From Candidatus Woesearchaeota archaeon (GTDB taxonomy: Archaea > Nanobdellota > Nanobdellia > Woesearchaeales > GW2011-AR15), in contig JAVZBY010000003.1 of the NCBI GenBank assembly GCA_038874655.1, positions 134,991-198,990 on the forward strand: a stretch of DNA of 64,000 nucleotides, written 5' to 3'. Made by a program: the position numbers and the translations under genes. Shown piece after piece: positions 4,921 through 34,815 of this stretch. The notes below the pieces were generated by a model. The model made no database searches. It saw only the letters and a list, made by a program, of their open reading frames with translations, and was not told the origin of the DNA. Positions within the stretch are counted from its first letter, which is position 1. The number at the start of each line of letters is the position of its first letter.

Positions 4921-4961
4921 ATATAATAAAAATATAATATAAAAAATAAATAGGTGAAAAA

Positions 4962-6145: not shown

Positions 6146-7894
6146 TTAAACTTTATCAAAATAGCTTGGTAATGTGGTTGATCCTAAAAAATTAACAATT
6201 ACTCCTCCATAAGCACAATGATTTAAATTAGTATTAGGAACATAAATACCTTTTATCTTTATTTTATTATGTTCTATTTTATATAAACTTTTTTTATTAA
6301 TATTACCCTCTTTAATAGTATAAGGAAGAACAAAACAAGAATCTCCACTACTACAATAGGATACAACAGAAATTAAAAGTGTTTTTTCCTCTGCTATACA
6401 CAAATTTCCTGGTTCATAAGGTATGCTTAAAAGATAATCCTCTCCTTCTGCTTTTCCACCTACACATCTAGAATCACAATATCCGTCATTTTTTTCTAGG
6501 TTATCATTTTCAATATATCTACATTCACAAAATCCCTCTCTAATAGGCATACAAACATTACTTGAACCGCAATATTCACCATACTTTTTATTACTACACA
6601 TTTTTATAGAATCTATTTCTCCTGATAAAATTTTTATTGTTTCAGGATCATAAGCTAAATTTTTTGAAACATCTTCTATTAAATTTGAATCTAGACATAA
6701 TCTATTTTCAAAATTATAATAAGGATTATAATATCTCCCATTCTCTACACATTTATCATGAATACTTTTTAACATTTCATCACACTTTATAAATTCTTTA
6801 TTAATATCATTATTTTCATAATATCCATAAATCACATTATTCCTCTTATCAAAGTATTTTGGTTCATTTTTAGCTAAGAGAGTAGTATAAACTTTATTAT
6901 TATCTAAATAATAACTAATTGCCCAATTATCTTTATCATTATCACATAAACAATTACCTTCACTTTCACATAACTCATTAAAATAATACATTGGTTTAAA
7001 TAACAAATCTGATTTTATTATTTTTAAAGTATTACAATCTGTCAACGGAGATTTATAAGAAAAACCATCAATATTTGCAATAAGTCTTCCATTTTTATAT
7101 TCAGTTTTTAAACCACGCCATAAATTCTTTTCTGAATCCCAAGTTGCAATTCTATAATTATTTATAGGCAAAGGTAAAGTTGTTTCATCAACATCATAAG
7201 AAAAAATAACTGGTTTTGAAAAAACAACTCCATCTGGCAATCCTTCATAGACTATATTACTATGTACTACCTTATTTTCAAATCCATTAAAGTTAGTATC
7301 ATGAATCTTTATAGAAATTTTATCTACAGGATTTCCATTTTTATCTAGAATTTTTGTTCCTTTTGAAAACAACAAATCAACTTTACCATCTATAGATTTA
7401 ATTACAATATCTCTATCGGTTATACCATTAGGTATTCTAACGAAATTAGTTTTATCTATATTAACTATAAACTCTCTAAACTCTATTTTTTGATTTTCTT
7501 TTTTTAACTCAACAAAATAATTAACATCTAAAGTAATTGTTTCTTCATTTAATTGTACATTTATTTGTAAATCACCTTCTTGAACTTGATAATTTTTCTT
7601 TTCTACCTCTGAAAAAAGTTGTTCTGTGCATAATTTTGTTTTTTGCTTAACTTGATTTTTAAATAATTCTATATTATTTTCATCAATACCTGTTTTTTCT
7701 ATTTCTGTTTTTGCTGCATCAGCAATACATAATTTAATCATTTCTTTAATATTACTTTCATAACTAAACTCAAAATAATTGCTCTTTGAAAAACCTAAAT
7801 TTGTATTTTTATATAACATTAAAATTAAAAATAGTAAAACAATAATTCCAACAATAAAAAAAATAGTAATCTGTGTTTTTTTGAGTTTAATCAT
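6146..7894 (-). CDS. Cys-rich exported protein with pilin-like (class III signal-like) N-terminus
   Basis: N-terminal KLKKTQITIFFIVGIIVLL resembles RYKKAQFFIIDGIFGIIIL of the pilin-like gene at 23809..24339. C-terminal half rich in paired Cys. Confidence 0.5.
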   Translation of the reverse strand: MIKLKKTQITIFFIVGIIVLLFLILMLYKNTNLGFSKSNYFEFSYESNIKEMIKLCIADAAKTEIEKTGIDENNIELFKNQVKQKTKLCTEQLFSEVEKKNYQVQEGDLQINVQLNEETITLDVNYFVELKKENQKIEFREFIVNIDKTNFVRIPNGITDRDIVIKSIDGKVDLLFSKGTKILDKNGNPVDKISIKIHDTNFNGFENKVVHSNIVYEGLPDGVVFSKPVIFSYDVDETTLPLPINNYRIATWDSEKNLWRGLKTEYKNGRLIANIDGFSYKSPLTDCNTLKIIKSDLLFKPMYYFNELCESEGNCLCDNDKDNWAISYYLDNNKVYTTLLAKNEPKYFDKRNNVIYGYYENNDINKEFIKCDEMLKSIHDKCVENGRYYNPYYNFENRLCLDSNLIEDVSKNLAYDPETIKILSGEIDSIKMCSNKKYGEYCGSSNVCMPIREGFCECRYIENDNLEKNDGYCDSRCVGGKAEGEDYLLSIPYEPGNLCIAEEKTLLISVVSYCSSGDSCFVLPYTIKEGNINKKSLYKIEHNKIKIKGIYVPNTNLNHCAYGGVIVNFLGSTTLPSYFDKV

Positions 7895-8092: not shown

Positions 8093-11000
8093 ATGAAAAA
8101 AAAGATGATAAAAAAGAGGTTATATTTTTTCTTAATTCTTGTATCATTTTTTTTATTTTTCTTTATTAATACTATACAATTTTCAAACTCACAAAGTTTA
8201 AATTATGAGAAAATCGGCAGATCTTATTTTAATTCTCCAAATTGCTATATCTATGAAGATAACTCTTTAAAAGATGGCGGCTGCTTATGCTATGAAAATA
8301 AAATAATGGGAACTGGTAATGAAGAGGATGGTTTATACTCAACATGTAAATCTAGTAACATGGATATTACTCAAATAGAAACTTCTTCAAATGAATGTTC
8401 TAAAAATTGTGTTTCTGATCAATACTATATAAGACTTTGCGAATTTGATGGCAAAAACTTCAATTGTAAAATCTTAGAAAAATTAACAGATTTTCCTTCA
8501 ATAAAAGAAATAGAACCAATCCTTGATGAAAATGGAAATAAAAAATGCTCTACTGATTTTTATAGAAATCCTGGGGAAAATAATTGCTATAAATACTATT
8601 TAGACCCAGAGAAAGAATTATGCGAATTACAAGAAACTAGTGAATTAGAAAAGTGTAATTGTTTAGATGTTAATACTGTAAATTGTGGTTTTGATGAATT
8701 ATTAAAATATTGTTGCAAAAAAGAAGAATTCAAAAATGACCCTAGATGTAATTGTAATATATTAAGTATTGAAATCAAAGGTAATGAAATTACTTGTCAA
8801 GAAAGTTATAAAAGGCCTAAAAAAAATTCATTAAACTGTGAAAAATTAACAAAAAAAGATAATTCATGCGTATATTTAGATGTAAATAATAAAGAGTGTT
8901 ATGATTTTGAATTAAATAACCCTAATAAAAGAAATGGCGATTTAAATTGCTTATCTGATCAATTATACCAACTTTATAATGAAGAATGTAAAAATTGTGA
9001 AAGCAAATTTATATATGATGTTGAAGAACATAAATGTTATTATAAATCACCTGAAACATTTTGTACAGAAAAAGAAGTTTATATATGCAATTGTATAGAT
9101 TTACTAAAAGAAAATGAAAAAACCTGTGATAATCCTTTTTATCAAATCTGCAATTTAGAATGTAAAAATAATGAGCAAAAAAGATGTACAAAAGGTTATT
9201 ATAGAGATTCATTTAATTCTGATAAATGTTTTATTCAAAAATTAGAAAACAATATTTGCATAGAAACTCAAGTAGATCCATTAAATTGTTTAGGAATTGA
9301 TGGTTCTAATTCATGTGTTAATGATAAAATAAAACAAATGACTGACGATTGCAATAAAAATTGCTCTGGAATAACTTATTTAAGATCAAAACATAATTCT
9401 AATGATTGTTTTGTTAAATCTCCTGATACAGATTGTGAAAAAAAAGAAACTGATTTAGAAAATTGTTTAGGTATAATGGGATCTAATAATTGTGAAAGTG
9501 ATCCTATTTATAATAGGTATGGTAATTGTGAAAGACAAGATTCTGACAATGATGGCATAGATGATAAATTTGAAAAAAAAGAATGTTTAAACACAAAAAA
9601 TAACGAGCCTGTAAATAATGATGGCTGTTCTTGTTCTCAAATTAATTGTGATGATAATAATCCCTGTACTGATGATTATTGCGAAAATGGTAGATGCATA
9701 TACAAGTATAACAATAACCCTTGTGGAGAATTTAGAAAATGTCCCTCCAGTCAATGTGAAAGCAAATATCCTTATGAAAGATGGATTGAATATCCAGAAA
9801 GTGGAAAAGATTATTGCTCAGAAGGTAAATGCTTAACTTATAGCTGTGAAATAAAAAGCATAAAATACTCTAAATATTGTGATCCTGACGATGATGATGA
9901 CAATGATCCAGATATAACTGATCCATATCCTGAAGATCCTTCTAGAAACACAGAATCAGAAAAAGAAAAACAAATAATTTGTGAAAAAAATGCCCCAAAC
10001 TGTGAATTAAATCTTGGGATTTGTAAAGATTCTAAAAAACAATGTATAAATAATGAATGGCTAACTTGTGACAAAAACAATTATGGCGAAAATTATGTGC
10101 TTGAAGAAGATAATAATCTTTGCGACGGATTAGATAATGATTGTGATGGCACAATTGATGAGAATTGTGAATGTATAAACAATGAAATAAAAGAATGTGG
10201 CATAAATATTGGAATTTGTAAAAAAGGCATACAAAAATGTATTAATGGCAAATGGAGCACTTGTGAAAATGCTATATTTCCAAAAAATGAAACATGTAAT
10301 AATTTAGATGATGATTGTGATGGTTTAACTGATGAAGATATTTACAATTCTGGTGATTACACCTTAAAAGAAGAATGCTTCATAAACCTATGTAAAGGTG
10401 TAAAAAAATGCAATTCTAATTGTGAATTATTTGAAGATAACGATAAAGATAATTATTGTACTACAATAGATAATTGCCCTGAAATTTCAAACACAGATCA
10501 GATAGATAGTGATGGTGATTTTATTGGTGATGCTTGTGATGTTTGTCCATTTGATCCTTTAAATGACATTGATAATGATGGTATTTGTAGTAATACAGAT
10601 AATTGTCCAACTCTTTATAACCAAAATCAACAAGATTCTGATAATGATAACATTGGTGATGCTTGTGATGTTTGTCCAAATGACCAATTAAATGATATTG
10701 ATAACGATGGTATTTGCAGTAATACAGATAATTGTCCTTTAAAATACAATCCTGAACAAATGGATTGTGATAATAACGGTATTGGTGATATTTGTGATTT
10801 AAACTCTCTTTGTGTTATTGATAGTGATAATGACGGAATAAAAGATAATAAAGATAATTGTCCTTATATATCAAATTCAGAACAAACAGATTCTGATAAA
10901 GATAATATCGGTGATGCTTGTGATGTTTGTCCATTTGATTCTTTAAATGATATTGATAAAGATGGTGTTTGTGGGAACATTGATAATTGTCCAAACATAT

Positions 11001-12880
11001 ATAACCCCAATCAACAAGATTCTGATAAAGATAATATCGGTGATGCTTGTGATGTTTGTCCATTTGATTCTTTAAATGATATTGATAATGATGGTATTTG
11101 TGGGAATATTGATAATTGCCCTTATAGATTTAATCCTCAACAAAATGACTGCAATAAAAATGATATTGGTGATGCTTGCGATACTAATTCAGAATGCTCA
11201 ATTGACTCTGATAAAGATGGAATTTTAGATGTTTACGATAATTGTCCCAATATATATAATCCCGAACAAAAAGATGATGATAAAGATGGAATTGGAAATG
11301 AATGCGATTTATTTAAAAATGATTTCTTTAATGATAAAGATAAAGACGGAATCTCTACTGAGATTGATAATTGTCCTTTTAATTATAATCCTGATCAAAA
11401 AGATTCAGATAATGATAAAAAAGGAGATGCTTGCGATATTTGTCCTTATGACCCATTAAACGATATTGATAGTGATGGTATATGTCATAATATACTAAAT
11501 AATATATCTCTTGACAATTGTCCTTTTAAATATAATCCTGAACAATTAGATTGTGATAAAAATGGAATTGGTGATGCTTGTGATTTAAACTCTAAATGTA
11601 TAGGTGATATAGATTTAGATAATATATTAGACACAAAAGATAATTGTCCTTTTAATTATAATCCTGATCAATTAGACCAAGATGGTGATGGTATAGGTGA
11701 TATTTGTGATATTTGTAAAAAAGATGCCTTTAATGATTTAGATAAAGATGGTGTTTGTGGAAATATCGATAATTGTCCAAATATATATAACCCAAATCAA
11801 CAAGATTCTGATAATGATAACATTGGTGATGCTTGTGATATTTGCCCTTACGATCCATTCAATGATATTGACAAAGATTTAATATGTGGTAATTTAGATA
11901 ATTGCTTAGAAACAAATAATCCTAAACAATTAGATTGCGATAAAAATGGAATTGGTGATGCTTGTGATTTAAACTCAAATTGCGTTAAAGATTATGATAA
12001 TGACAACATACTAGATTATTATGATAATTGTCCTGAAAGTTATAATCCAAATCAATTAGACTCTGATAAAGATAATATTGGTGATGCTTGTGATGTTTGT
12101 CCATTTGATCCTTTAAATGACATTGATAATGATGGTATTTGTAGTAATACAGATAATTGTCCAACTCTTTATAACCCAAATCAACAAGATTCTGATAATG
12201 ATAATATTGGTGATATCTGTGATCTTTGCCCAAATGATGAAAATAATGATATTGATGAAGATACAATTTGTGGCAACTTAGATAATTGCCCTTTTATAAA
12301 AAATCCTGGTCAAGAGCTTTGTGATTCTATAAACACTCAACAAATTATATTTGACAACAAATTAAAAATAAGATTAGATAACCTTTCAAGTTTAACAAAA
12401 AAAGGTGTATTCCTAAACATATCAAAAAATGAAGAGGAAAAATTAAAAAAATTAAAAGAAAACATAGAAATTGAAACAAAAGAATATTATATAGATAATA
12501 AAAAATTTACCAAATATAAAATAACAATTGACTCAAAAAATTTAAATAATTTATATTACTATCAAAATATTCCAAAATGCTTAGCTGAGAAAGCAGAAAA
12601 TCTATATTTTAATGGAAAGAATTATCGTATCATTGAAAATGATCCTCTAATTGCATGGCAATATTCTAACACTCTAGATAAAGTTGAAATTACCTATGAC
12701 ATTGAAGGAAGTATCTCTAAAGAATGTTTAGCACAATTAAAAGATTATATTTATTCTTCAACAATTAAAAATGAAAACAAAAAAAATATTTTATACATAA
12801 TAATACCTTTAATTTTAATTCCTTTAATAATTTTCATAGTTATTCTATTAGAAAAAATGCAAAAAACAGATAATAACTAA
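8093..12880 (+). CDS. giant surface protein: signal peptide, EGF-like Cys-rich modules, more than 15 thrombospondin type 3-like calcium-binding repeats, C-terminal TM anchor
   Basis: 1595 aa. Repeated DxDxDGxxDxxDNCP / DSDNDNIGDACDVCP motifs. C-terminal ILYIIIPLILIPLIIFIVILL hydrophobic anchor. N-terminal signal peptide. Confidence 0.8.
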   Translation: MKKKMIKKRLYFFLILVSFFLFFFINTIQFSNSQSLNYEKIGRSYFNSPNCYIYEDNSLKDGGCLCYENKIMGTGNEEDGLYSTCKSSNMDITQIETSSNECSKNCVSDQYYIRLCEFDGKNFNCKILEKLTDFPSIKEIEPILDENGNKKCSTDFYRNPGENNCYKYYLDPEKELCELQETSELEKCNCLDVNTVNCGFDELLKYCCKKEEFKNDPRCNCNILSIEIKGNEITCQESYKRPKKNSLNCEKLTKKDNSCVYLDVNNKECYDFELNNPNKRNGDLNCLSDQLYQLYNEECKNCESKFIYDVEEHKCYYKSPETFCTEKEVYICNCIDLLKENEKTCDNPFYQICNLECKNNEQKRCTKGYYRDSFNSDKCFIQKLENNICIETQVDPLNCLGIDGSNSCVNDKIKQMTDDCNKNCSGITYLRSKHNSNDCFVKSPDTDCEKKETDLENCLGIMGSNNCESDPIYNRYGNCERQDSDNDGIDDKFEKKECLNTKNNEPVNNDGCSCSQINCDDNNPCTDDYCENGRCIYKYNNNPCGEFRKCPSSQCESKYPYERWIEYPESGKDYCSEGKCLTYSCEIKSIKYSKYCDPDDDDDNDPDITDPYPEDPSRNTESEKEKQIICEKNAPNCELNLGICKDSKKQCINNEWLTCDKNNYGENYVLEEDNNLCDGLDNDCDGTIDENCECINNEIKECGINIGICKKGIQKCINGKWSTCENAIFPKNETCNNLDDDCDGLTDEDIYNSGDYTLKEECFINLCKGVKKCNSNCELFEDNDKDNYCTTIDNCPEISNTDQIDSDGDFIGDACDVCPFDPLNDIDNDGICSNTDNCPTLYNQNQQDSDNDNIGDACDVCPNDQLNDIDNDGICSNTDNCPLKYNPEQMDCDNNGIGDICDLNSLCVIDSDNDGIKDNKDNCPYISNSEQTDSDKDNIGDACDVCPFDSLNDIDKDGVCGNIDNCPNIYNPNQQDSDKDNIGDACDVCPFDSLNDIDNDGICGNIDNCPYRFNPQQNDCNKNDIGDACDTNSECSIDSDKDGILDVYDNCPNIYNPEQKDDDKDGIGNECDLFKNDFFNDKDKDGISTEIDNCPFNYNPDQKDSDNDKKGDACDICPYDPLNDIDSDGICHNILNNISLDNCPFKYNPEQLDCDKNGIGDACDLNSKCIGDIDLDNILDTKDNCPFNYNPDQLDQDGDGIGDICDICKKDAFNDLDKDGVCGNIDNCPNIYNPNQQDSDNDNIGDACDICPYDPFNDIDKDLICGNLDNCLETNNPKQLDCDKNGIGDACDLNSNCVKDYDNDNILDYYDNCPESYNPNQLDSDKDNIGDACDVCPFDPLNDIDNDGICSNTDNCPTLYNPNQQDSDNDNIGDICDLCPNDENNDIDEDTICGNLDNCPFIKNPGQELCDSINTQQIIFDNKLKIRLDNLSSLTKKGVFLNISKNEEEKLKKLKENIEIETKEYYIDNKKFTKYKITIDSKNLNNLYYYQNIPKCLAEKAENLYFNGKNYRIIENDPLIAWQYSNTLDKVEITYDIEGSISKECLAQLKDYIYSSTIKNENKKNILYIIIPLILIPLIIFIVILLEKMQKTDNN
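10440..12300 (+). repeat. in-frame tandem/dispersed DNA repeats encoding the TSP3-like units (129-bp period; ~100-bp perfect duplicate)
   Basis: 10889..10958 is identical to 11018..11087 (period 129 bp = 43 codons). 10522..10622 is identical to 12076..12176. Confidence 0.75.
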
Positions 12881-15495: not shown

Positions 15496-16059
15496 ATGAA
15501 ATCTAATTTAGAAAAAATTTTTAAAAGAGTAAAAGAAAAAAAAACCTTTTTTCTTATATTAATCATAATATTACTAATTTTTTTTATCTACTTAAATTTA
15601 ATCAAACAAATACTCTTTTCTGCAATAATAATAGCAATAGCCTCAATAACAAAAATATACCATAAATTTATAAAAACAACATTAAGCATTGACTTAATCT
15701 TTTTTTCTACACTATTAATATGTTTCGCCTACAAAAATTTTATTTTAAGCATAACTTTTTCTTTAATTGGATTAATAATTGCAGATTATTTAGCCCAAAA
15801 ATTAAACCAAAACACATTAATAAGTGCCTTTACACTTATTTTAACAATATTATTTTTTAATCTTTTAAATAGTTTAAAAATTGATATTATAATTATTGCT
15901 ATATTTTTAATGCTATTATATGAGATTTTAGCCTCGTTTTTATACAATCTAATTGGAAGTTCAAAGGATAAAATAGTATTATTTTTTATCTCACACTTTT
16001 TAACAAATTTATTTCTTATTTTAAATTATTTAAAACAAATCTTAGAATTAATCTCTTAA
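15496..16059 (+). CDS. hypothetical polytopic membrane protein
   Basis: 187 aa, 5 to 6 hydrophobic segments. Confidence 0.4.
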   Translation: MKSNLEKIFKRVKEKKTFFLILIIILLIFFIYLNLIKQILFSAIIIAIASITKIYHKFIKTTLSIDLIFFSTLLICFAYKNFILSITFSLIGLIIADYLAQKLNQNTLISAFTLILTILFFNLLNSLKIDIIIIAIFLMLLYEILASFLYNLIGSSKDKIVLFFISHFLTNLFLILNYLKQILELIS

Positions 16060-16108: not shown

Positions 16109-17191
16109 CTAAGGATTTACTTTAACCTCTACATTTACTCCTTTTTCTGTTTGAACAACTACCTTAGGTTTATCCTGATTATCATTTTTATTATTAGTCT
16201 CTTCTTTTACTTCTTTTTTCTCATTTTGTTGCTTCTTCTTTTTTTTAATACTTTTTTGCTCTTTTTTATTTGAATTTATTTCTTTTTTCTTATTTTTACT
16301 ATTTTTTTGTTTTGTTTCTTTTTTTACACTTTTTTGTGTTTTATTATCCTTTACTTTTGTTTCTTTTAATTTTTGTGTACCCTCTTTTTTTAATTGTTTT
16401 TCCAACTTAACTAGTTCTTTTTCTACATCACTAAAGCTAGATTTTTTATTGCTTTTTTTAGCATTTGTTTTTTTAACTTTTGATTTTTTTGCTTCTTTTT
16501 TATTTGATTTTACTTTTTTCTTCTTTTGAGATTTTCCTGATTTTTTAACTTTTTTATCTGAAGATTCTGTTTTATGGTGTATAATTATTGGTTTTTCAAC
16601 AACTTTAACAACACTCTCTTTTACCTCACTCTCTTTTACATTAGTTTGTTCTTTAAGTTGATTCGCCTCTTTACTTTCTTCATCTTTTTTTGGTTCAGGT
16701 ATCTTCAATTCATCTGTAGAATCTAATAATTTTTTATCTTCTTTATAATAGTCCTTATATTTCATAATATCTTTTAAAACCATATCAACTAGATTATTAT
16801 CTTTCCATCCTTTTGATTCTAAATTTTGCTTTATTTGTTCAGAACTATATCCTTTATTCATTGCCCATATAACATAGTTCATTATTTTATATAAATCAGG
16901 AGCCAACCTCTTTAAATATAATGTTTCTGTGTCATCTTCTAATTCTTGTATTTCTTGTTCAAATTTACTTAAATCTGTTGATTCTTCTGTTTCAAATCTT
17001 CTAATCTCATCTAAATCCTTTTTTTCTTCTTCTGCTAATTTTTCTAATTGCATTAATTCTTCTTGCTCTTCAGTAGTCATTCTTTGTAATTTTTGCAGCT
17101 GAACTAAAATTATAACAAGCAAGATTAAAAATAATATCACTAACATAAAGAAAATTTCAGGTAAAGGCATATTTACTCCAAATACTAACAT
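16109..17191 (-). CDS. membrane-anchored protein with acidic coiled-coil region and extremely Lys-rich C-terminal tail
   Basis: N-terminal TM FFMLVILFLILLVIILV, then EEQEELMQLEKLAEEEKK, then ~150 aa of KKVKKSGKSQKKKKVKSNKKEAKK-type sequence. Confidence 0.55.
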   Translation of the reverse strand: MLVFGVNMPLPEIFFMLVILFLILLVIILVQLQKLQRMTTEEQEELMQLEKLAEEEKKDLDEIRRFETEESTDLSKFEQEIQELEDDTETLYLKRLAPDLYKIMNYVIWAMNKGYSSEQIKQNLESKGWKDNNLVDMVLKDIMKYKDYYKEDKKLLDSTDELKIPEPKKDEESKEANQLKEQTNVKESEVKESVVKVVEKPIIIHHKTESSDKKVKKSGKSQKKKKVKSNKKEAKKSKVKKTNAKKSNKKSSFSDVEKELVKLEKQLKKEGTQKLKETKVKDNKTQKSVKKETKQKNSKNKKKEINSNKKEQKSIKKKKKQQNEKKEVKEETNNKNDNQDKPKVVVQTEKGVNVEVKVNP

Positions 17192-17276
17192 TAACTATCA
17201 CCTCTTTTATAATAAATAAAGTTATCTTTATAAATTTTTATAAAATTTAAAAAAATTAAAATAAAAAAATAAACAA

Positions 17277-20200
17277 CTAAGATTCTAAATCAACACTAGA
17301 TTCTGCTACTTTATTAATGATCCTGAAACTACCTCCTTTGTATAGATAAGCATTTATCTTATAATTAATTCCTTCTCTTACACAATAGGGGTTTGATAGT
17401 AAAGGCTCAATTACTATACCTTGAATATAAACACTTCTCATATAATCCACAATAACGCTTTTTCCGAATATAGTAGATGGATCATGTATATCTAACTCTA
17501 TATCTGAATAACCTTCATAATCTCTGTTATTTACTATATAATATAAATCATAACATACCATGTTTCCTTTATTGAATCTAGAATCTGGCATTGCTCTTAT
17601 CTCAAATTCTGGAATCACAACTTCTAACTCAATATCTTTTTGAGCTAAAAGATCATTATTGTTTTTTATATATAATTTTAATATTGCTTTACTTGAAGTA
17701 TAATCCTTTACTAAAACAACAAAATTAATCTCTTTTTCTTCTCCAGCAGTAATTTTTTTGATAATTAGATTATTATTTTTTACATCTATTTTATTTGGCG
17801 CTTCTAAAGAAATAACTAAATCTTCTAACTCTCTATTTAGATTGTTTTTTAATTTTACTTTTACTAAAACAGAATCTAATACATTAACAACATTTTTAGT
17901 ATTAATAGTTATTGTAAATAACTCTTCATTAAGTAGACAGTTTTCATCTACTTGTCCATTACAGTTATCGTCTATATTATTACATAATTCCATTCTTCCT
18001 GGATTTATATTATAATCATTATCATTACAATCATTACTACCTGAACATGTGCTTAAAATTTTATAATAACCATCATTATCTAAATCTACACAAACAGGTT
18101 GTTGATTTTGTGTTGTTGGTTTATAACATAATTTTGTATTTGAATTGCATAATAATCCACTCTTACAAGAATCTCTTTTTTCATAACAATCTTCGCATGC
18201 ACAACCCTCGCCTATTTCACATTCTCCGTTTGGTTGCCCTATACATCCTTTTTTGCCGCCATGATTTTCACATGTTGCATCACAAGTATTATCATTACAT
18301 AAAACAGTTCCTTCATCACAATAATAAGTTCTATCTTCTACACACAAAGAAGTGAAATAATTACACTTTGCTCCTAAAACACAACCGTCTCTTAAATCAT
18401 GACAATCTTTACAACCACATCCTTCTCCTAATTGACAGAAACCATCTTCAACAATGCAACCTTTAACACCTCCATGATTAGCACATGTTTCATTACAGGT
18501 ATTATCATTACATAAAGTTGTTCCAACAGGACAACCACATAAACCAAAAGAACAAATAGCTCCTTGAACACAACTATCTTGTTTGTTTCTACAATCTTCG
18601 CAAGCACATCCTTCTCCTATTTCACATTTTCCGTTTCTATTTATACAACCTGCAAAACCACTATCTGTTTCTAGACAATTTCTACTACATGTTCCGTCTT
18701 TACATAATGCTGTTCCAGGCAAACATTGTTTAAATGCATCATTGCAATTACTACCATTCCAAACACAACCAAATTGTGTTAATGATGCCCTACAAGGATC
18801 AAAAACACATGAAATCTCATTAGTATAGTTTGAACATTTCATATTACTTTTACAATTTTCACAATAATCCCCTAAATTACTTGTTGGGAATAAAGCATCA
18901 AAAATAGTGCTTGTATTTATCCAATAACCCCCACAATCAAATAAACATTTCTCTGCACTACAACCTTCTAAAAAAGGAGGTATTATTGTTTGTTTCCCAC
19001 AATTTTCTGGCTTATCACATCCACTTGTACATAAAGGATTAGAATAACTAAATGGATTTGTTATTGGATTAATTTTACGCTGTGTTAAATATACTTTTCT
19101 CAAATTAACTAAACCTTCAAAATTAACATTGAAATTCATTACTGAATCAGTTTTTATAACTAAACAATCTAAATCATTTTTAACTTTTGATAAGTACAAT
19201 ACTTCTTTATTATTATCTCTTAATTGATAACTATCTTGGTTTAAATCAAAATTATTTAATTCTTTAACAAGCATAGATTTTTCTGAATTTATCCTTATAG
19301 TAATATTGTGTTGAATACTATCGTCTGAATAAGTACAAACAAAATAATTACAATTTGAATCCCATATATATACTCCATAACCCTGCAAAAACTCTGGTTC
19401 ATCAATTAAACCATCGCAATCATTATCAACACCATCATTTAATGTACTTTCAAAATTTTCTGTTTTTACACAAGGTAAAGAACATTTTTCATTAAGATAA
19501 TCACATACTAATCCCTGTGCACAACTATCTTTTTTATTAGAGCAATCTACACATGCACAACCTTCTCCTTCTTCACATATGCCATTTCTTATATTACAAC
19601 CCTTTGATGCTGTATCAGTTTCTTTACAATTTTCACTACATGTCCCCTCTTGGCATAGTGTTGTTCCTAAAGGACATTGACATAAGAAATTAGTATCACA
19701 AACAGCACCTAAAACACATCCATCTTGTTTTCCTAAACAATCTGAACATGCACACCCTTCTCCTTCTACACAATTTCCATCTGGATCACCAATACAACCC
19801 ATAAAATCTGTATCTGTTTCTTTACAATCTGAACTACATGTTCCATCTTGACATAAACCTGTTCCTACTGGACAACCTTTTAATTCACAACTACATGTGT
19901 TTAAATTACATGTTTTACCTTCACCACAATCTTGATCATTACCACATTGTGCCCCACATTTATTCTTTACACACTTGGGTAAATCATATAAACAGTTACA
20001 ATCTGCACATCCTATTCTTTGTGAAACTTTTTTACTATTTTGTGAACACAAAAATTCATTGCAATTATTGCCAAAAACAGGTCGATTATTTATAACATCA
20101 CATTCTTCTACTGATTCTAGTTTTTCATTACCACATATATTAACATTTTCACCTACACAACTATTACAACTCATAACATCTGCATCTGTTATAGCACCAT

Positions 20201-21851
20201 CACTATTAATATCATAAATATTTAAAGACTCTGTATCTGTTTTTCCGATATTATTAAATATTGCTGTTAAATCTGCATCATCTACTACATTTGAACTTTC
20301 TCCTTCTGTATTAACATTACATTTTAAACATATATTTTGACAAGTTTCATCTATATATCTTATCCAAACACCATACCTTGGTCTTCCTAAAATATTTGTT
20401 ATCTCAACTTCTTTACAAACCTTTTTTACACCTTGTGAGCAATATGCAAAATTTTCTTCTCTACATTTACCTTGCTCATCTACACAAAGATGTGTATTAT
20501 TAATACAACATGAAGAAGGATTATTACTCAATTGACCTATTTCTGAATATTGCATATATGCTGGATTTACAGAATTATAAGTATTAATTGAAACATAATA
20601 GTCAATTGGTATTTCCTTATTATCATCTCCACAACACAATCCTTGAATATCTTCTAACCCCTCAACTTCTTCATTGGGTTTAAAAGTATCTTTACCATAA
20701 TAACATTGATTTTCATTTTCACAATCAAACCATTTTGATTTAATAAAGTGATAAACATATTGTGGTGTCTCAGGTGTATTTGACATAGATACAAACTCTT
20801 TAATAATTACTTTATCTGTACAATTCCCTTCATTTACATCCAAATCAAGCCACCCTCCTTGAATACCATTTCTTGAATAACAATATTCTATTTCATTATC
20901 ACCATCTGCATCAATTAAAGTGCCAACTGGATGTCCTTTTTTATTAATGTCAACACAATCTGTATTCCTGTAACTACAATTTATAATATTTGTATTTGAA
21001 TTACATTCATCCCAATTATATACTAAATTATTCTCATAAAAATAATAATAAGTATAATCATAAGGATTTTCATCTCTTCCAGTTTCAAAAACATAATAAT
21101 CAAAATCAGGATTAATATTATCATTAACTTTTGGACAATAGAAGAAATTTTCATATCTTATTGGAACAATCACTTCTTCTGTAACATCATATGTATTTGT
21201 GTCTAATGCGGTTTTTATTTCATTTCTATTACCTTTAACTATAACCCTTAAAGGAGTATTAGAAACAATACTTTGTGTAATTGCTTCATTAGGAACTTGA
21301 ATCTCTTCCCTAAATGCATATGCATTTCCAACATTATTATAAACTAAATCCTCATTATCCCAACTTTTATCAACTGTTATAGTATCTCCACAATATGTAC
21401 AAGCTACTTCTAAAATAAATTTTTTTGAATTAGGACTATTATTCAAACAAATCTCTGAAACAGAAGCAGTTAAAGATGCTGGCGGATAATTACAAACATT
21501 ATTATTACATATGCCATAATAGCCACACTTTGTTCCTAATCCAGAACATGTGCCACAATTATTAGTTGGTGTTATTTGTACACCACATTGCACTTGAGAT
21601 GCAGGTGGACATTGAGGTGTACATGATGAACCCTCATTATATTGTCCACAACAACACGCTAAAACACCATTATCATCTCTACATCCATCAAAGCCAGGTT
21701 TACAGTTTGGATAAGTATATTGAATATCTCCCTGACAACAATATTGACTACATAATTTAGCATTAGAGGGAAATAAAAATATTATAAAAAAAATTAAATA
21801 TATTATATAATAAAAATTGTTAAACTTATAATTCTCTTTCATATACCCCAC
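17277..21851 (-). CDS. giant (1524 aa) secreted modular Cys-rich protein with at least 5 copies of a ~65-aa module, dockerin-like and DxDxDG motifs
   Basis: Signal peptide. Repeated CPxGTxLCxDGTCSxxCxETDTxxxGCIxxxGxCExGEGCACxDC modules. DINSDGAITDADV dockerin-like loop. NDGVDNDCDGLIDE. Confidence 0.75.
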   Translation of the reverse strand: MGYMKENYKFNNFYYIIYLIFFIIFLFPSNAKLCSQYCCQGDIQYTYPNCKPGFDGCRDDNGVLACCCGQYNEGSSCTPQCPPASQVQCGVQITPTNNCGTCSGLGTKCGYYGICNNNVCNYPPASLTASVSEICLNNSPNSKKFILEVACTYCGDTITVDKSWDNEDLVYNNVGNAYAFREEIQVPNEAITQSIVSNTPLRVIVKGNRNEIKTALDTNTYDVTEEVIVPIRYENFFYCPKVNDNINPDFDYYVFETGRDENPYDYTYYYFYENNLVYNWDECNSNTNIINCSYRNTDCVDINKKGHPVGTLIDADGDNEIEYCYSRNGIQGGWLDLDVNEGNCTDKVIIKEFVSMSNTPETPQYVYHFIKSKWFDCENENQCYYGKDTFKPNEEVEGLEDIQGLCCGDDNKEIPIDYYVSINTYNSVNPAYMQYSEIGQLSNNPSSCCINNTHLCVDEQGKCREENFAYCSQGVKKVCKEVEITNILGRPRYGVWIRYIDETCQNICLKCNVNTEGESSNVVDDADLTAIFNNIGKTDTESLNIYDINSDGAITDADVMSCNSCVGENVNICGNEKLESVEECDVINNRPVFGNNCNEFLCSQNSKKVSQRIGCADCNCLYDLPKCVKNKCGAQCGNDQDCGEGKTCNLNTCSCELKGCPVGTGLCQDGTCSSDCKETDTDFMGCIGDPDGNCVEGEGCACSDCLGKQDGCVLGAVCDTNFLCQCPLGTTLCQEGTCSENCKETDTASKGCNIRNGICEEGEGCACVDCSNKKDSCAQGLVCDYLNEKCSLPCVKTENFESTLNDGVDNDCDGLIDEPEFLQGYGVYIWDSNCNYFVCTYSDDSIQHNITIRINSEKSMLVKELNNFDLNQDSYQLRDNNKEVLYLSKVKNDLDCLVIKTDSVMNFNVNFEGLVNLRKVYLTQRKINPITNPFSYSNPLCTSGCDKPENCGKQTIIPPFLEGCSAEKCLFDCGGYWINTSTIFDALFPTSNLGDYCENCKSNMKCSNYTNEISCVFDPCRASLTQFGCVWNGSNCNDAFKQCLPGTALCKDGTCSRNCLETDSGFAGCINRNGKCEIGEGCACEDCRNKQDSCVQGAICSFGLCGCPVGTTLCNDNTCNETCANHGGVKGCIVEDGFCQLGEGCGCKDCHDLRDGCVLGAKCNYFTSLCVEDRTYYCDEGTVLCNDNTCDATCENHGGKKGCIGQPNGECEIGEGCACEDCYEKRDSCKSGLLCNSNTKLCYKPTTQNQQPVCVDLDNDGYYKILSTCSGSNDCNDNDYNINPGRMELCNNIDDNCNGQVDENCLLNEELFTITINTKNVVNVLDSVLVKVKLKNNLNRELEDLVISLEAPNKIDVKNNNLIIKKITAGEEKEINFVVLVKDYTSSKAILKLYIKNNNDLLAQKDIELEVVIPEFEIRAMPDSRFNKGNMVCYDLYYIVNNRDYEGYSDIELDIHDPSTIFGKSVIVDYMRSVYIQGIVIEPLLSNPYCVREGINYKINAYLYKGGSFRIINKVAESSVDLES

Positions 21852-21972
21852 CTTCTAAAAGTATTATTTTATTTTTAAAACATTATTAATTAATTTTTAA
21901 TAAAAGTAATCTCATTTTTTACATATATAAACTTTTCGCTCCTAGATAAATTATATCCTAAAAATATCATTT

Positions 21973-22998
21973 CTAATTCACATTCTTTATTAATATCAAA
22001 GCACCTTTTTTTGTATCTGGTAAATCTTCAATGGAATATGCGTTAAAATTACAATCTAATAACCTTAAATTACTATCACCAAATAATTCATCAAAATTAA
22101 TATTAGTTTCTGTATCATCATTAACATTTTTTGCTTTAAATGTCAATTTAGCTATACTTCCTGAACCAGAAGCACATTCATTACCTATAACTCCTAAACT
22201 AAATCTTCCCTCACTTGGACTTATCAATGGATAAGAAATACTGTTTATTTCTTTATGAGAATTATCTAAATTAACAACAAAAACAGAATCAAATAAACTA
22301 TTTTCATTATAAGATGACGATGTAATTATACCAGTCCTTTCAAGAGATATAAAATTAGGGTCATACTTTATAGTAATTTGTATAGATCTTAAATTATTAA
22401 CACAATAAAGATTCAAATACAAATCAAACTCATTGTTCTCATTAACAATTACATCATATTTGCTGTAAATATTGCTTTGTTTTGATTCCAAACTAGCTTG
22501 ATTTTTAGAAATTCTTATTCCATCTTTATCACTTTTAGTTATACAATGTCTATTAGTAGTTTCATTAATCTTTTCTGCAAAATTCCCTTTCACAAAAGTA
22601 GGCAAAATACTATTATAGGTTTTTTTCACTTTTTTATTTCCGCCTAAATAATATTTATCAAAAATAATTAAGGTTATTTCATCATTGCTTAAATTAAGTG
22701 TATATTCATATCCCATTAATCGTGTTGGTAATTCAAATTCCCTATAATAATTATTATGCATTGATGAAGCAATAATAATTTCATTTTTTATATCATTAAT
22801 CAAATTAATAATCTCTTGATTTTCTTTTTCTTGGCTAATCTCAGAAATTCTATTTGTAATTAAATATATAAAACCAGTTATAACTAAAAAAACAATACCA
22901 AAAATTAATATAAATTCAAAGGATATCTGAGCTATTTTAGCTATTTTAAAGTATTTAAGCAAACCTTCTTTTGTTATAGTTTTATTAATTTTTTTCAT
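21973..22998 (-). CDS. pilin-like protein (class III signal-like N-terminus), large C-terminal domain
   Basis: MKKINKT...KIAKIAQISFEFILIFGIVFLVITGF. Start moved to Met17 to avoid overlap with the upstream gene. Confidence 0.45.
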   Translation of the reverse strand: MKKINKTITKEGLLKYFKIAKIAQISFEFILIFGIVFLVITGFIYLITNRISEISQEKENQEIINLINDIKNEIIIASSMHNNYYREFELPTRLMGYEYTLNLSNDEITLIIFDKYYLGGNKKVKKTYNSILPTFVKGNFAEKINETTNRHCITKSDKDGIRISKNQASLESKQSNIYSKYDVIVNENNEFDLYLNLYCVNNLRSIQITIKYDPNFISLERTGIITSSSYNENSLFDSVFVVNLDNSHKEINSISYPLISPSEGRFSLGVIGNECASGSGSIAKLTFKAKNVNDDTETNINFDELFGDSNLRLLDCNFNAYSIEDLPDTKKGALILIKNVN

Positions 22999-23030
22999 TT
23001 TAAAAACATCAATTTTCACAGAGACTTTAA

Positions 23031-23819
23031 TCAAGTTTCTTGACAACCATTTTTACAAATACCTTTTCCTTTAAAATTATCACTTTTACTTAATTTATTT
23101 AAAACAGATGCTTCGTCATCATTATTAGTATCAATCAACCAACTATTTGTAATTTTACCTCTATTTCCTGCTGAATCATAACTATAAATTCCATAAACAC
23201 TTATCTTTATTATTTTATTAGTTTTCCCTTTCCATGAAGCAAAATTAGTTTTATCTGCTATTTCATAATTAAAAGTTCCATTTAATTCTAATGTCCATGG
23301 ATCAATTTGCTTAATAAAATTTCCAAAAAAAGAAACATTTAATTTTTTCAATTCAATATTTAAGTAAGAAAAATTTTTTTCTAAATCACTTTTTAAATTA
23401 GTAAACAAATATCTTTTGTCAATGTAATTCAATTGTGTTAAATTATAATCTCTATTATTAACAGTCAAATTACCATCATAAAAAACATCTGGAAATGCTG
23501 ATAAGAAAGATTTAATATAATTTTGATTAAACCCATTATCATAATAAAAATGTGATAAACCAATTATGACTTCTTTAGAACTAATATATAACATGTTTTC
23601 TAAATAATAATTTTCAAAATCATTCACAAATGAATTTAAAACTTTTAACCTTGCTCTTGTAGCATCAAGATCTGAAACTTTTTCATATCTTTTTGAGTTT
23701 AAATCAATAGTTGCTAAAAATAAAAAAACAAATAAAATAGAAGTAATTGTAAAAAAAACAGACTTTTTATTATTTTTTAATCTAAATTTTTTTAATTTAA
23801 TTAAGATTCTATTTTTCAT
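23031..23819 (-). CDS. pilin-like protein
   Basis: Basic leader KKFRLKNNKKS followed by VFFTITSILFVFLFLATI hydrophobic segment, then soluble domain. Confidence 0.45.
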   Translation of the reverse strand: MKNRILIKLKKFRLKNNKKSVFFTITSILFVFLFLATIDLNSKRYEKVSDLDATRARLKVLNSFVNDFENYYLENMLYISSKEVIIGLSHFYYDNGFNQNYIKSFLSAFPDVFYDGNLTVNNRDYNLTQLNYIDKRYLFTNLKSDLEKNFSYLNIELKKLNVSFFGNFIKQIDPWTLELNGTFNYEIADKTNFASWKGKTNKIIKISVYGIYSYDSAGNRGKITNSWLIDTNNDDEASVLNKLSKSDNFKGKGICKNGCQET

Positions 23820-24339
23820 TCCAAAAAAGCACCTCTACTAAATAAGGGCCAAATTTAATAAAACTACCATCATTTGGATTTTCATAATACCCAAAAACAA
23901 TAGTTTGTCTATTAATTATTTGCTCAGCTTTTTGAAATTTATCACCTTTTGAAAAAATCTCTTCATTGTTTATTCTTATTTTAAGTCCATATCTATCATC
24001 AACTAAATTATATGTGTCTATAAAATCTTTAATTAATAATTTTATTTGAGCTCTATTATTTTTATTATATAACTCACCAATAATGGTAATTAAAGTTTGA
24101 TTAATATTTACATTATTATGTATTGCTGTTAAATTATTAAAATTGCAATTTCCTGCATTACACAAATCTTCACCCTTAACATTAGTTATTAAATCATAAA
24201 AATTGTCTGCTATATTATCCATAGTTATAGCATTACTTTCCGCCCTATAACTTGAAAATAATAATAAATACCCCATAATCAATATAATTATCCCAAAAAT
24301 TCCATCAATTATGAAAAATTGTGCTTTTTTATATCTCAT
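23809..24339 (-). CDS. pilin-like protein (start moved to MRYKKAQ...)
   Basis: MRYKKAQFFIIDGIFGIIILIMGYLLLF: short basic leader, Q, hydrophobic helix, i.e. class III signal-like. Confidence 0.5.
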   Translation of the reverse strand: MRYKKAQFFIIDGIFGIIILIMGYLLLFSSYRAESNAITMDNIADNFYDLITNVKGEDLCNAGNCNFNNLTAIHNNVNINQTLITIIGELYNKNNRAQIKLLIKDFIDTYNLVDDRYGLKIRINNEEIFSKGDKFQKAEQIINRQTIVFGYYENPNDGSFIKFGPYLVEVLFWNEK

Positions 24340-24377
24340 TTTGCATAACTTTTTACAAATATAATTATTTGCCATCT

Positions 24378-24932
24378 TTACTCTGCACATATATAAACAT
24401 TAAAAGTATAAATATCCTTTTGATTATTATAATCATAAAGAACATTTCTCTTAATAAGTATTGATTCTTTCAACGAACATTTTGGATTAGCAACTATATT
24501 ATTTAAATCAGAATCTCCACATAAAATCCTTTCTCCAATAGTTAAAAAATAAACATAATTATTATTATAATTAGGAAAAACTGCCCTGCTTTTTATTATC
24601 CTATTGTTTTTATCTTGTAGATATAAACAATAAGAAATCCTCTTAACAGAATTCGTTGTTAAATCTTTAAAAAAAAAGTCATATAAAACATTATTATCCT
24701 CATTAAAAAAAGCATCTAGCTTATTATTATCAATTTTAATTCCATCTAAAAAATCTTTTTCCTCATCATAAATTTCATTTAACTTATTAAACATTAACTC
24801 ATATTGAATATCCAATTTTTTTTCAGATGTCAAAAAAAAAGCATTATTCAATCCATAAAAAAATAAGGATACTGCAAATATATATAAAATAAAAGTCATA
24901 ACAAAATCCATACTAATAATTTGAGATTTCAT
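24378..24932 (-). CDS. pilin-like protein
   Basis: MKSQIISMDFVMTFILYIFAVSLFF parallels KSQFAMEYVLMIAIALAIL of the adjacent pilin. Confidence 0.5.
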   Translation of the reverse strand: MKSQIISMDFVMTFILYIFAVSLFFYGLNNAFFLTSEKKLDIQYELMFNKLNEIYDEEKDFLDGIKIDNNKLDAFFNEDNNVLYDFFFKDLTTNSVKRISYCLYLQDKNNRIIKSRAVFPNYNNNYVYFLTIGERILCGDSDLNNIVANPKCSLKESILIKRNVLYDYNNQKDIYTFNVYICAE

Positions 24933-24944
24933 TTTTTACAAATT

Positions 24945-25499
24945 TTAACTATATTCTTGTTTTGAGATATTAACACAAATCTTTTGTATTACATTATTAT
25001 TTTGATATTTATAAATACAATTTGGGATTACATCCAAGTAAATACCTTTTAAACCTTCTCCATATATACTTTTTTTTAAACATTTACAATCATTATCAAT
25101 ACAAAGTTCATCTGGATTTATATCGCAATTATCACCATACAATGGAACACTAGACTCATACATAACTTTATTTTCCCCTCCTGTTGTAATATATTTAAAA
25201 ATCAAATATGTTTCATTTCCACCTTTAACATTTAATATATACATATTAGTAATACCCGAAGGCATCTCAAAAGTTAAGGTTGTTCTAGATGAAACACCAT
25301 AATAATAAATTTTTCTTGCATTATTTATAATTAAATTAGAAATTTGATTTAGTTTATTATTAATTGCAAAATCATTGCTTTGGAAAACATAATTTCTAAA
25401 AACATAAATTCCAGAAAGCAAAATAGCTAATGCAATAGCAATCATTAAAACATATTCCATTGCAAACTGAGATTTACCCCTTTTTTTAAAAATCTTCAT
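24945..25499 (-). CDS. archaeal type IV pilin (class III signal peptide, DUF361-like QxAxEY motif)
   Basis: MKIFKKRGKSQFAMEYVLMIAIALAILLSGIYVF matches the archaeal prepilin consensus (basic leader, G, then Q..AMEY + hydrophobic helix). Confidence 0.65.
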   Translation of the reverse strand: MKIFKKRGKSQFAMEYVLMIAIALAILLSGIYVFRNYVFQSNDFAINNKLNQISNLIINNARKIYYYGVSSRTTLTFEMPSGITNMYILNVKGGNETYLIFKYITTGGENKVMYESSVPLYGDNCDINPDELCIDNDCKCLKKSIYGEGLKGIYLDVIPNCIYKYQNNNVIQKICVNISKQEYS

Positions 25500-25606: not shown

Positions 25607-25696
25607 CGCAGCTGAGAGGATTTGAACCCCCGACCTACTGCTTAGGAGGCAGTCGCTCTTTTTGGCTTACTTGTATCCAAGCTGAGCTACAGCTGC
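25607..25696 (-). tRNA. tRNA-Arg (anticodon CCT) with a 15-nt insertion/intron in the D-loop
   Basis: Reverse complement: GCAGCTG acceptor paired with CAGCTGC, D-arm GCTC-AGCTTGGATA[CAAGTAAGCCAAAAA]GAGC, anticodon stem ACTGC/GCAGT with loop CTCCTAA, T-loop TTCAAAT (T-stem has two G-U pairs). Confidence 0.5.
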
Positions 25697-34053: not shown

Positions 34054-34815
34054 TCATCTCAAATCTGATTCAATTAAAGGAATAAAATGAGTCATATCAA
34101 TAATAGAGTTAGTTTTATTTATAATACCAACAACATGCACATTTATTCCAAAAAAATCATCAATCTTATCACCTGATTTTTGAAATAATTTTTCTGAAAT
34201 CATCATACTTGCTTCATCAAATCCAATAACAACAGGATAATATGTTTTTCCGTTAATTATCTTCACATTATAATCTTTTATGTTGCCCTCCATTAACTCT
34301 AAATTGGGTTTATCTCCTAAACTATAACTATAAAATAATTTAGGCATTCCTTTATTTGTAAATTTAATAAAAAGTTTATTTTCAATTCCATTTATTTTAT
34401 AAAAATTTTCCTCAGATAAAAAATGCATATCATCAATCATTGTATTTGTTTTTTTCAATACGCCACCTATTTGGACATTTATGCCAAAAAAATTGTTTAT
34501 ATTATCATCAATTTTTGAAAATAGTTTTTCATTTTTCATCATTTCTGCCTCATTAAAACCTAAAACAATTTTATTATTTTCAATAGAAATTTTTCCATCA
34601 TTTAGTTTTAGTTTTTTTAATTCCTGCTCATTCACATAAGAAAAAACTTTCATTTCATTTTTCTCACTAAAATCTACTTTCATTTTTAAATTTTTAAAAA
34701 AATTTTCATCTATCATAACTGGTGAATATCTAAAATAAAAAAATGTGCCAATGAAAAGCATTATAGTTGTAATTATTATTGCAAATTTCATTAAAATCTG
34801 CCCCCGCAACCACAT
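34054..34815 (-). CDS. membrane-anchored exported protein with internal tandem duplication (unknown function)
   Basis: [36 protein letters not shown] is repeated as [36 protein letters not shown]. Confidence 0.45.

Follow-up and report, generated by a model that had tools for sequence, protein, structure and literature searches.

Here, we analyzed a 64,000-nt stretch of the metagenome-assembled genome (MAG) of a small-celled Woesearchaeota (DPANN) archaeon (contig JAVZBY010000003.1, positions 134,991 to 198,990), referred to as the window, and within it a cluster of seven genes for pilin-like proteins, a giant Cys-rich protein, and a Lys-rich membrane protein. The window has ~25% G+C and carries archaeal housekeeping genes, including those for valyl-tRNA synthetase (ValRS) and mevalonate-pathway enzymes. 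A previous reading of the DNA made without database searches, called the sequence-only reading below, described seven consecutive minus-strand open reading frames (ORFs), and we found all seven at exactly the coordinates claimed. We named them P1 (24945-25499; 184 amino acids (aa), 6 Cys), P2 (24378-24932; 184 aa, four conserved Cys), P3 (23809-24390; a 193-aa ORF that probably starts at the ATG at 24339), P4 (23031-23819; 262 aa), P5 (21973-22998; 341 aa from the NCBI-annotated ATG at 22998, within a full ORF of 357 aa at 21973-23046), G (17277-21851; a secreted, Cys-rich giant of 1524 aa), and K (16109-17191; 360 aa, Lys-rich). The N-terminal strings quoted in that reading are all present in the translations of the cluster, and so is DINSDGAITDADV. 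Its statement that the genes are spaced by 0 to 40 nt fits the first four junctions, which are tight or overlapping (12 nt between P1 and P2, then -13, -11, and -16 nt up to P5), but not the P5-G and G-K junctions, with spacers of 121 and 85 nt, respectively.

The cluster is not a chance arrangement, since the order P1-P2-P3-P4-P5, usually followed by the giant and K, is kept in ~20 distinct loci of other genomes, with protein identities of 28-58%. These loci come from P5 homologues traced to their contigs and from a scan of one genome per species (17 loci), and their gene order was read with hidden Markov models (HMMs) of each family, which gave P1-P2-P3-P4-P5 in nearly all; individual loci are denoted L001 onwards. 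The synteny comparison proposed by the sequence-only reading recovered the order in Woesearchaeota-type (DPANN) loci, and the closed 1.16-Mb genome of Archaeon GW2011_AR15 (AR15) is one of the genomes with the cluster. Six cluster-bearing MAGs (L009, L010, L011, L013, L017, and L021) are filed as “uncultured Methanosarcinales archaeon” in third-party annotation assemblies, a title that probably mislabels their taxonomy. In 13 loci, this window counted, P5 has a giant Cys-rich gene or two split genes on its 3′ side. In an exhaustive search of 1.84 billion representative proteins, the P5 profile found just 32 clusters at E ≤ 1e-30, some of them fragments, and the near-full-length pilin-cohesin matches sit among those 32. 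Therefore, the P5 pilin-cohesin family is small and lineage-restricted. An NCBIfam scan of the seven cluster proteins gave no meaningful match, and P1-P4, G, and K have no curated NCBIfam family. For the same six proteins, Pfam was limited to a sub-threshold class III signal match in P1 and to MopE and Dockerin_1 in G, with nothing else meaningful.

Profile matches and structure prediction identify P1 and P5 as type IV pilin-like proteins with class III signals. The N-terminus of P1 reads MKIFKKRGKS/QFAMEY (family consensus MKKRG/QIAVEY) and the class III signal of P5 reads KIA/QISFEF (family KKA/QISFEF), where the slash precedes position +1 and a Glu occupies position +5 in both. The Pfam Class_IIIsignal profile (PF04021) matched all members of the P1 family (16/16, best E 4e-6) and 25 of the 28 members of the P5 family (best E 3.4e-5). 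The AlphaFold2 model of P5 (pLDDT 89.4) contains a 70-residue helix (residues 10-79), a β head (84-171), and a β sandwich (183-338), and its long N-terminal α-helix with a β-sheet head is the layout of a pilin. The P1 model, of low confidence (pLDDT 60.7, from a three-sequence alignment), has a helix at residues 8-67 followed by strands. A Foldseek search with the P1 model returned no meaningful match (best E 0.06), and the P1 profile had no match among PDB sequences. Homology links P1 with the N-terminal half of P5 and extends through the globular head (hhalign probability 96%, E 1.8e-9), which contradicts the earlier claim that the C-terminal domains of the pilin-like proteins are all different. 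P5 is composed of a pilin module (aa 1-172) and a C-terminal cohesin module. Positions 3-100 of the P5 profile are matched by hundreds of archaeal proteins of 120-180 aa with N-termini of the form RKAQ/KSQ...EF.

The cohesin domain of P5 (aa 183-338; 21985-22452, minus strand) was overlooked by the sequence-only reading. Residues 206-333 of the 357-aa ORF match Pfam Cohesin (PF00963) with an E-value of 3.2e-9 and 37.6 bits, above the gathering threshold (GA) of 24.1, and the domain is matched by all 28 P5 family members (best E 1.2e-15). The P5 domain has the nine-stranded β-sandwich (jelly-roll) of the cohesin fold, and the 341-aa product is 100% identical to an NCBI entry named “cohesin domain-containing protein.” Relatives of P5 carry lectin or Cys-rich modules grafted on the same pilin module. 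The cohesin-pilin of L014 (9989-12169), for instance, is a 726-aa protein composed of the pilin module, the cohesin, four DUF4215 repeats, and a Laminin_G_3 domain (concanavalin A (ConA)-like lectin), so that an adhesive module is fused directly onto a cohesin-pilin.

The giant G is a secreted protein as had been claimed, with a Sec-type signal (..FPSNA/K), and the dockerin-like loop noted in the sequence-only reading belongs to a two-segment dockerin-like module. It has no C-terminal membrane anchor or other hydrophobic anchor, and therefore needs a tether. The protein contains 140 Cys. Five Cys-rich modules of 64-71 aa start at aa 660, 726, 1043, 1107, and 1178, the first two spanning aa 660-791 (19479-19874) and the last three aa 1043-1243 (18123-18725), all on the minus strand. 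The sequence-only reading had counted at least five copies of a ~65-aa module with eight Cys; the number and length of the copies agree, but each has 12 Cys. G also carries a MopE-type motif (Pfam E 7e-11) and further DxDxDG calcium/metal-type motifs. Pfam, run on whole G and on five pieces of it, returned only MopE, Dockerin_1, and a weak PTHB1_GAE match. The giant of L002 contains Laminin_G_3 domains. Orthologues of G (L001, L002, L004, L012-L014, and L017) share 30-42% identity over nearly the full length, which makes G an orthologous family rather than a hypervariable payload; in L005 and L007 the giant is split in two genes.

The dockerin-like module of G (aa 511-574; 20130-20321, minus strand; CNVNTEGESSNVVDDADLTAIFNN...YDINSDGAITDADVMSC) has two segments. 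In isolation, residues 511-574 match Pfam Dockerin_1 (PF00404) with an E-value of 2.9e-4, just under GA, and Dockerin_1 was the top Pfam match for 6/6 segments tested, from the window and five orthologues. The orthologous segments score 14.0-25.9 bits, with just that of L007 (25.9) above GA. The second calcium loop of the window copy is canonical (DINSDGAITDAD), and in orthologues such as those of L001, L012, and L014 both loops are canonical, for example CDVNDDGKVDQID...DINDDGLVDQLD. We count the module as having the dockerin layout of two tandem segments, each an EF-hand-like loop of the form D-x-[ND]-x-[DN]-G-x-[IV]-x-x-x-D plus a helix. A conserved Cys pair flanks it in most orthologues. 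We built an HMM from four segments, and it recovered the module in two further giants that had not contributed to it (36 and 32 bits). With filters off, the same HMM picked up the module in 13 distinct loci, each time in the giant 3′ of the cohesin-pilin gene, and matched no other ORF. The module lies at aa ~440-590 in most giant orthologues, at aa 709 in the split giant of L005, and elsewhere in L020, L022, and L023.

Between P1 and P5, the genes for P2, P3, and P4 encode putative minor pilins, as judged by a shared N-terminal pattern and by operon position, with translational coupling between two bona fide pilin genes. The pattern, a basic leader, a small residue, and a hydrophobic stretch, is visible by eye. 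P2 begins with MKS/QIISMDF (family KKS/QIISMDF) and has a conserved Asp at +6; in 17 other loci an orthologue of P2 stands at this place in the gene order. P3 begins with MRYKKA/QFFIIDGIF (family KK[AG]/YFFLMD) with an invariant Asp at +6, and hhalign aligned its family to P1 with a probability of 36%, confined to the N-terminal 27 columns. P4 begins with ..NNKKS/VFFTITS (family KK[AGS]/IFFSIVS) and has no acidic residue at +5 or +6. GspK, the capping pseudopilin of the type II secretion system (T2SS), also lacks the conserved acidic residue near its N-terminus, and by analogy P4 is a candidate capping subunit. In other lineages P2, P3, or P4 is enlarged with thrombospondin type 3 (TSP3) or Cys-rich modules, as expected of exposed minor pilins.

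The protein encoded last in the cluster, K, combines an N-terminal transmembrane (TM) segment and an acidic coiled coil with a conserved KGxSxxQIKxNLxxKGWKD domain and a tail rich in Lys; it has 23% Lys overall and 0 Cys. A K orthologue directly follows the giant in nine other distinct loci and directly follows P5 in L018. The TM segment, coiled coil, and Lys-rich tail agree with the earlier description of K, but its assignment as a surface component is not supported. K is a conserved partner with its bulk probably in the cytoplasm, because Lys and Arg follow the TM segment on its C-terminal side, because K has no Cys whereas the exported cluster proteins are all Cys-rich, and because an Ada-type zinc domain is present in the orthologues of L002 and L004. 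In these two orthologues (L002 17231-18184 and L004 16013-17083) the C-terminal VVVxxxKGVDVxVKY motif is replaced by an Ada_Zn_binding domain (23.7 bits in L004, against a GA of 23), which hints at a cytoplasmic, possibly nucleic-acid-binding tail.

We could not detect a T2SSE assembly ATPase or a T2SSF platform protein in the 64-kb window with tblastn or by reading the ORFs by eye. A prepilin peptidase was not recognized among the window ORFs, which were read by eye with Pfam scans of a few neighboring genes, and none was identified anywhere. This is in line with the sequence-only reading, which reported no assembly machinery in the window; the ATPase and the platform are present in relatives. 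A 757-aa FlaI-like T2SSE ATPase is encoded 4-6 kb from the cluster in L002 and L003, and we judged its orthologues to be on the cluster's own contig in L017, L023, and AR15. In L025 (8311-12274 and 16862-20145) and L002 (1488-5494), the neighbors of the 757-aa ATPase are a coiled-coil protein, a protein of 227 aa, and a canonical pilin of 155 aa. K and the 227-aa protein have a GxSxxQIxxNL motif in common, but at 5.7 bits this is not evidence of a relationship. On an AR15-type contig (L025), a second T2SSE of 495 aa, followed by two T2SSF genes, lies ~5 kb from the 757-aa ATPase. The 155-aa pilin on this contig begins with MRTRKAQ/VAVETLL and is a better candidate for the major pilin. FlaI-like T2SSE ATPases are near-universal among relatives, with 6371 homologues at E ≤ 1e-30, many of them named as Woesearchaeota. 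Type IV pili components have been said to be missing in DPANN genomes (bioRxiv 10.1101/2020.05.14.094862), and this is contradicted by the T2SSE, T2SSF, and pilin genes of these relatives.

We propose that a type IV filament-like system has its non-core, surface-exposed part encoded in this cluster. P1-P5 would be exported with class III signals and then cut by a prepilin peptidase whose gene lies elsewhere, and the hydrophobic helices at their N-termini would assemble a minor-pilin or tip-type complex, for which a T2SSE ATPase and a T2SSF platform would be supplied from elsewhere in the genome. P5 would act as a modular pilin, with the pilin module as carrier and the C-terminal cohesin as socket. 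G would exit by the Sec pathway, and its internal, Cys-bracketed, calcium-binding dockerin-like module would plug into the P5 cohesin, so that a pilus-like structure could display a disulfide-rich adhesin of 1500 residues for attachment to a host cell or surface. K would be the conserved membrane-anchored partner that faces the cytoplasm. A giant adhesin mounted on a set of pilins was already the idea of the sequence-only reading, and the P5 cohesin together with the dockerin-like module of G suggests a concrete physical link between the two. An exposed, adhesive role is supported by the lectin domain on the L014 P5 orthologue, by the Laminin_G_3 domains of the L002 giant, and by the extra modules on P2, P3, or P4 in other lineages. 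For a minor-pilin or tip-type complex whose cohesin-pilin holds the dockerin-bearing adhesin, we consider the case for and against evenly balanced; within it, pilin status for P2-P4, cohesin-dockerin binding, filament formation, a tip location, an adhesive function, and host attachment are inferred. More tentatively, and with somewhat more doubt than belief, we put forward the fuller picture of a Woesearchaeota type IV filament with a cohesin socket at its tip or surface, onto which a giant, dockerin-bearing, disulfide-rich adhesin is plugged non-covalently.

Several observations weigh against this proposal. The window copies of P1 and P5 fall under the Class_IIIsignal gathering threshold (15.9 against 23.7 bits). 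All five pilin-like proteins had been credited with archaeal prepilin N-termini, which holds for P1 and P5 through the matches of their families, but the same Pfam profile, a kind of search that the sequence-only reading had itself named as a test, matches 0/18 P2, 0/18 P3, and 0/17 P4 family members, and hhalign comparisons of these three families with P1 were not significant. No ATPase, platform, or peptidase was located for the source genome within the 64-kb window. The dockerin segment of the window is just under the Dockerin_1 gathering threshold (21.4 against 22.9 bits), its first calcium loop is degenerate with a four-residue insertion, and the module is internal rather than terminal. 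The longer spacers on either side of G make it possible that G and K are transcribed separately. Five complete loci (L006, L016, L018, L021, and L024) have the cohesin-pilin/five-gene core with no adjacent giant. Finally, one point in favor of the proposal, that within the ~412 kb of window and loci cohesins were restricted to P5 orthologues and the dockerin-like module to G orthologues, is a biased statistic because the loci were gathered through P5.

The strongest competing explanation is a display platform without a long filament, in which P1-P5 would stay in the membrane as a short pseudopilus, a bindosome-like assembly, or uncleaved signal-anchored proteins, and P5 would be a single-cohesin scaffoldin that holds G. 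A precedent is the Sulfolobus bindosome, whose binding proteins are anchored by class III signals. Such a platform agrees with the cohesin and dockerin evidence just as a filament tip does, and the lack of class III profile matches in P2-P4 and of an ATPase or platform gene in the window fits it; moreover, the 155-aa pilin beside the ATPase in relatives suits a fiber-forming major pilin better. However, P1 and P5 have the conserved Q+1/E+5 motif typical of processed archaeal pilins, and minor-pilin priming or tip complexes are usually encoded by such a set of five co-ordered pilin-like genes (PMC4858521; PMC8179133). We regard the platform as unlikely, though a serious contender.

Less probable again, and in our view rather unlikely, is that the cohesin and the dockerin-like module are not partners at all. 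The loops of G would then be generic EF-hand-type calcium sites, the P5 cohesin would bind another partner or none, and adjacency would reflect a shared surface function. The sub-threshold score and degenerate first loop of the window module point in this direction, as do the five loci with a cohesin-pilin and no adjacent giant, and the other DxDxDG and MopE-type calcium/metal motifs in G. On the other hand, the two-segment module, Cys-bracketed in most orthologues, is kept in 13 loci, mostly at a similar position; Dockerin_1 is the best Pfam match for every segment tested, with one above GA; and G lacks any other way to attach. Binding has been shown for archaeal cohesin-dockerin pairs in work cited in PMC9012536.

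Two further explanations borrow from other pseudopilus systems. In the first, five pilin-like proteins would form a T2SS-like piston that exports or pushes the giant through the envelope without displaying it. The number of pilin-like subunits does equal that of GspG-K, P4 resembles GspK in having no conserved N-terminal acidic residue, and a putative substrate is encoded next door. Yet G carries a Sec signal itself, archaea lack both an outer membrane and a secretin, the proteins have no sequence relation to Gsp proteins, and a cohesin implies stable tethering, so we rate this explanation as very improbable. The least probable of all is a competence-like DNA-uptake pseudopilus, which would liken the five pilins to ComGC-GG (a count that resembles that of Com pili) and have K, anchored in the membrane, receive DNA with its Lys-rich tail and, in the L002 and L004 orthologues, with a terminal Ada-type zinc domain, but which is opposed by the charge distribution and lack of Cys in K that argue for a cytoplasmic tail, by the lack of any ComEC-like channel seen, and by a giant Cys-rich protein and a cohesin that it leaves unexplained.

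The proposed tip complex with a cohesin socket has parallels in several known systems. Streptococcus sanguinis has modular pilins, PilB with a von Willebrand factor A (vWA) module and PilC with a ConA-like lectin module (Raynaud et al. 2021, PMC8179133). Like these, P5 has a class III signal, a small pilin module as carrier, a functional C-terminal module, and minor-pilin neighbors. The S. sanguinis modular pilins are predicted to be exposed at the tip, and the same is predicted for P5. Unlike them, P5 is archaeal, whereas that census is bacterial and based on IPR012902, and a cohesin is what is grafted on, an adaptor socket that receives a second protein rather than a ligand-binding domain. 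The word “cohesin” is absent from the text of PMC8179133 and from its available supplements.

Bacterial type IVa pili offer a second parallel in the PilY1 (PilC) tip complex, for which PMC8179133 and PMC4858521 describe an operon of four to five minor pilins followed by a very large, calcium-binding, non-pilin adhesin that is displayed via the minor pilins. Similarly, P1-P5 are followed by the very large putative adhesin G. However, there is no homology, and coupling here would be by cohesin and dockerin, whereas in PilY1 a β-propeller docks on the minor pilins. We rejected G as a PilY1/PilC-type tip adhesin, as the Pfam scans of whole G and its five pieces contained no C-terminal PilY1/PilC β-propeller and no DUF2341, the domain reported for archaeal candidates. 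Among archaea, type IV pilus loci of the Methanococcus Epd type contain at least five minor pilins and large adhesins (Makarova, Koonin and Albers 2016, PMC4858521), and archaeal pilin sets can be apart from the ATPase/TadC pair (PMC4858521). Like the Epd-type loci, the cluster brings together several supported or putative class III signal proteins and large secreted putative adhesins. DPANN, cohesin, and dockerin are unmentioned in this archaeal census.

The proposed coupling is nearest to known cohesin-dockerin systems, namely cellulosomal scaffoldins and anchoring proteins and the non-cellulosomal archaeal pair of Archaeoglobus fulgidus (PDB 2xdh). Unlike in these systems, a single cohesin is carried here on a pilin module rather than on an S-layer homology, sortase, or TM anchor. 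The dockerin of G is internal and bracketed by a Cys pair, unlike in the cellulosomal and A. fulgidus systems, and the window copy has the degenerate first loop. The cargo, too, differs from that of cellulosomal cohesin-dockerin systems, as G is a Cys-rich putative adhesin and not an enzyme. We rejected a cellulosome, since there is one cohesin, there are no enzymes, and no glycoside hydrolase or carbohydrate-binding module was found in G or its neighbors. Much work exists on cohesin-dockerin pairs and on modular pilins separately, and their combination is new as far as we found; we found no description in the literature of a pilin-cohesin fusion or of cohesin-dockerin coupling in DPANN pili. 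A cohesin borne by a pilin, or DPANN, is likewise not mentioned for the modular pilins, the PilY1 complex, the archaeal pilus loci, or the archaeal cohesin-dockerin pairs cited in PMC9012536.

Several genes around the cluster deserve mention. A convergent neighbor of K (15496-16059, plus strand) encodes a 187-aa multi-pass membrane protein that is conserved directly after K in seven other loci. Its family alignment has two invariant Asp (D66 and D97) as well as invariant K53, Y55, K60, G154, S155, and N171, and it has no Pfam or PDB relative. We rejected it as a candidate prepilin peptidase: it has the two invariant Asp, but no GxGD motif, no Peptidase_A24 match, and no PDB relative. A novel peptidase or accessory factor is a guess, and membership of the protein in the system is uncertain. 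Further away, a 582-aa Cys-rich protein (6146-7894, minus strand) has the class III-like N-terminus MIKLKKT/QITIFF and starts with MIKLKKTQITIFF, in agreement with the sixth such N-terminus that the sequence-only reading had pointed out. It has no Pfam match. A homologue is encoded directly downstream of P5 in the closest relative, L008 (1780-3237; 39% identity, E 1e-94), and others lie within a few kb of the cluster in L012 (4822-5559) and L014 (20382-20876). The 582-aa protein may be a further, loosely linked component of the cluster. In L006 (3893-9118), the five-gene pilin core is followed by a Bat-like set (DUF58, VWA/BatA, and, a short distance away, a MoxR-type AAA ATPase) instead of the giant and K.

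A second giant, calcium-binding surface protein is encoded nearby at 8093-12880 (plus strand). It has 1595 aa, 14 TSP3 repeats (Pfam E 2e-63), and MopE-like CDGxDNDCDG motifs, and, unlike G, it is self-anchored through a C-terminal TM segment; a homologue adjoins ValRS in L001. Upstream of P1, a 90-nt tRNA-like element (25607-25696, minus strand) lies between a DUF5684 gene and P1 and marks the cluster boundary. It was missed by ARAGORN, and Rfam gave a partial tRNA match of 28.0 bits against a GA of 29. Its acceptor stem is 7 bp long and its anticodon loop reads CUCCUAA (CCU, Arg), and taking 15 nt out of the D-loop yields a canonical 75-nt cloverleaf; therefore, it is probably a tRNA-Arg(CCU) with a non-canonical D-loop intron. 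Three adjacent genes at 4324-6109 (plus strand) encode membrane proteins of 198, 195, and 202 aa, the first two of which are paralogues (37% identity) with N-termini ..DRLG/VYEVLLPFLLIF and ..DRMG/VLDILLPFLLIF. This trio is syntenic with AR15 at 51-61% identity (L012 19255-20906). Finally, a 253-aa protein with a class III-like N-terminus (MWLRG/...; 34054-34815, minus strand) adjoins copper P-type ATPase genes.

The cluster suggests a previously undescribed way to mount a large adhesin on a pilus-like surface structure. The central inference is directly testable by calcium-dependent binding of two small recombinant modules, the P5 cohesin and the dockerin-like module of G. If the two bind, they would add a small, Cys-bracketed pair to the protein-engineering toolbox and would offer a general route for pili to exchange very large adhesins. 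If the fuller picture is true, this would be, as far as we found, the first cohesin-dockerin coupling that loads cargo onto a pilus, and two new accessory factors would come with it, K and the 187-aa membrane protein with two Asp. The Woesearchaeota, an abundant group of uncultured archaea with small genomes, are thought to be host-dependent. The system described here would then be the first concrete candidate for a host-recognition organelle of an uncultured DPANN lineage.

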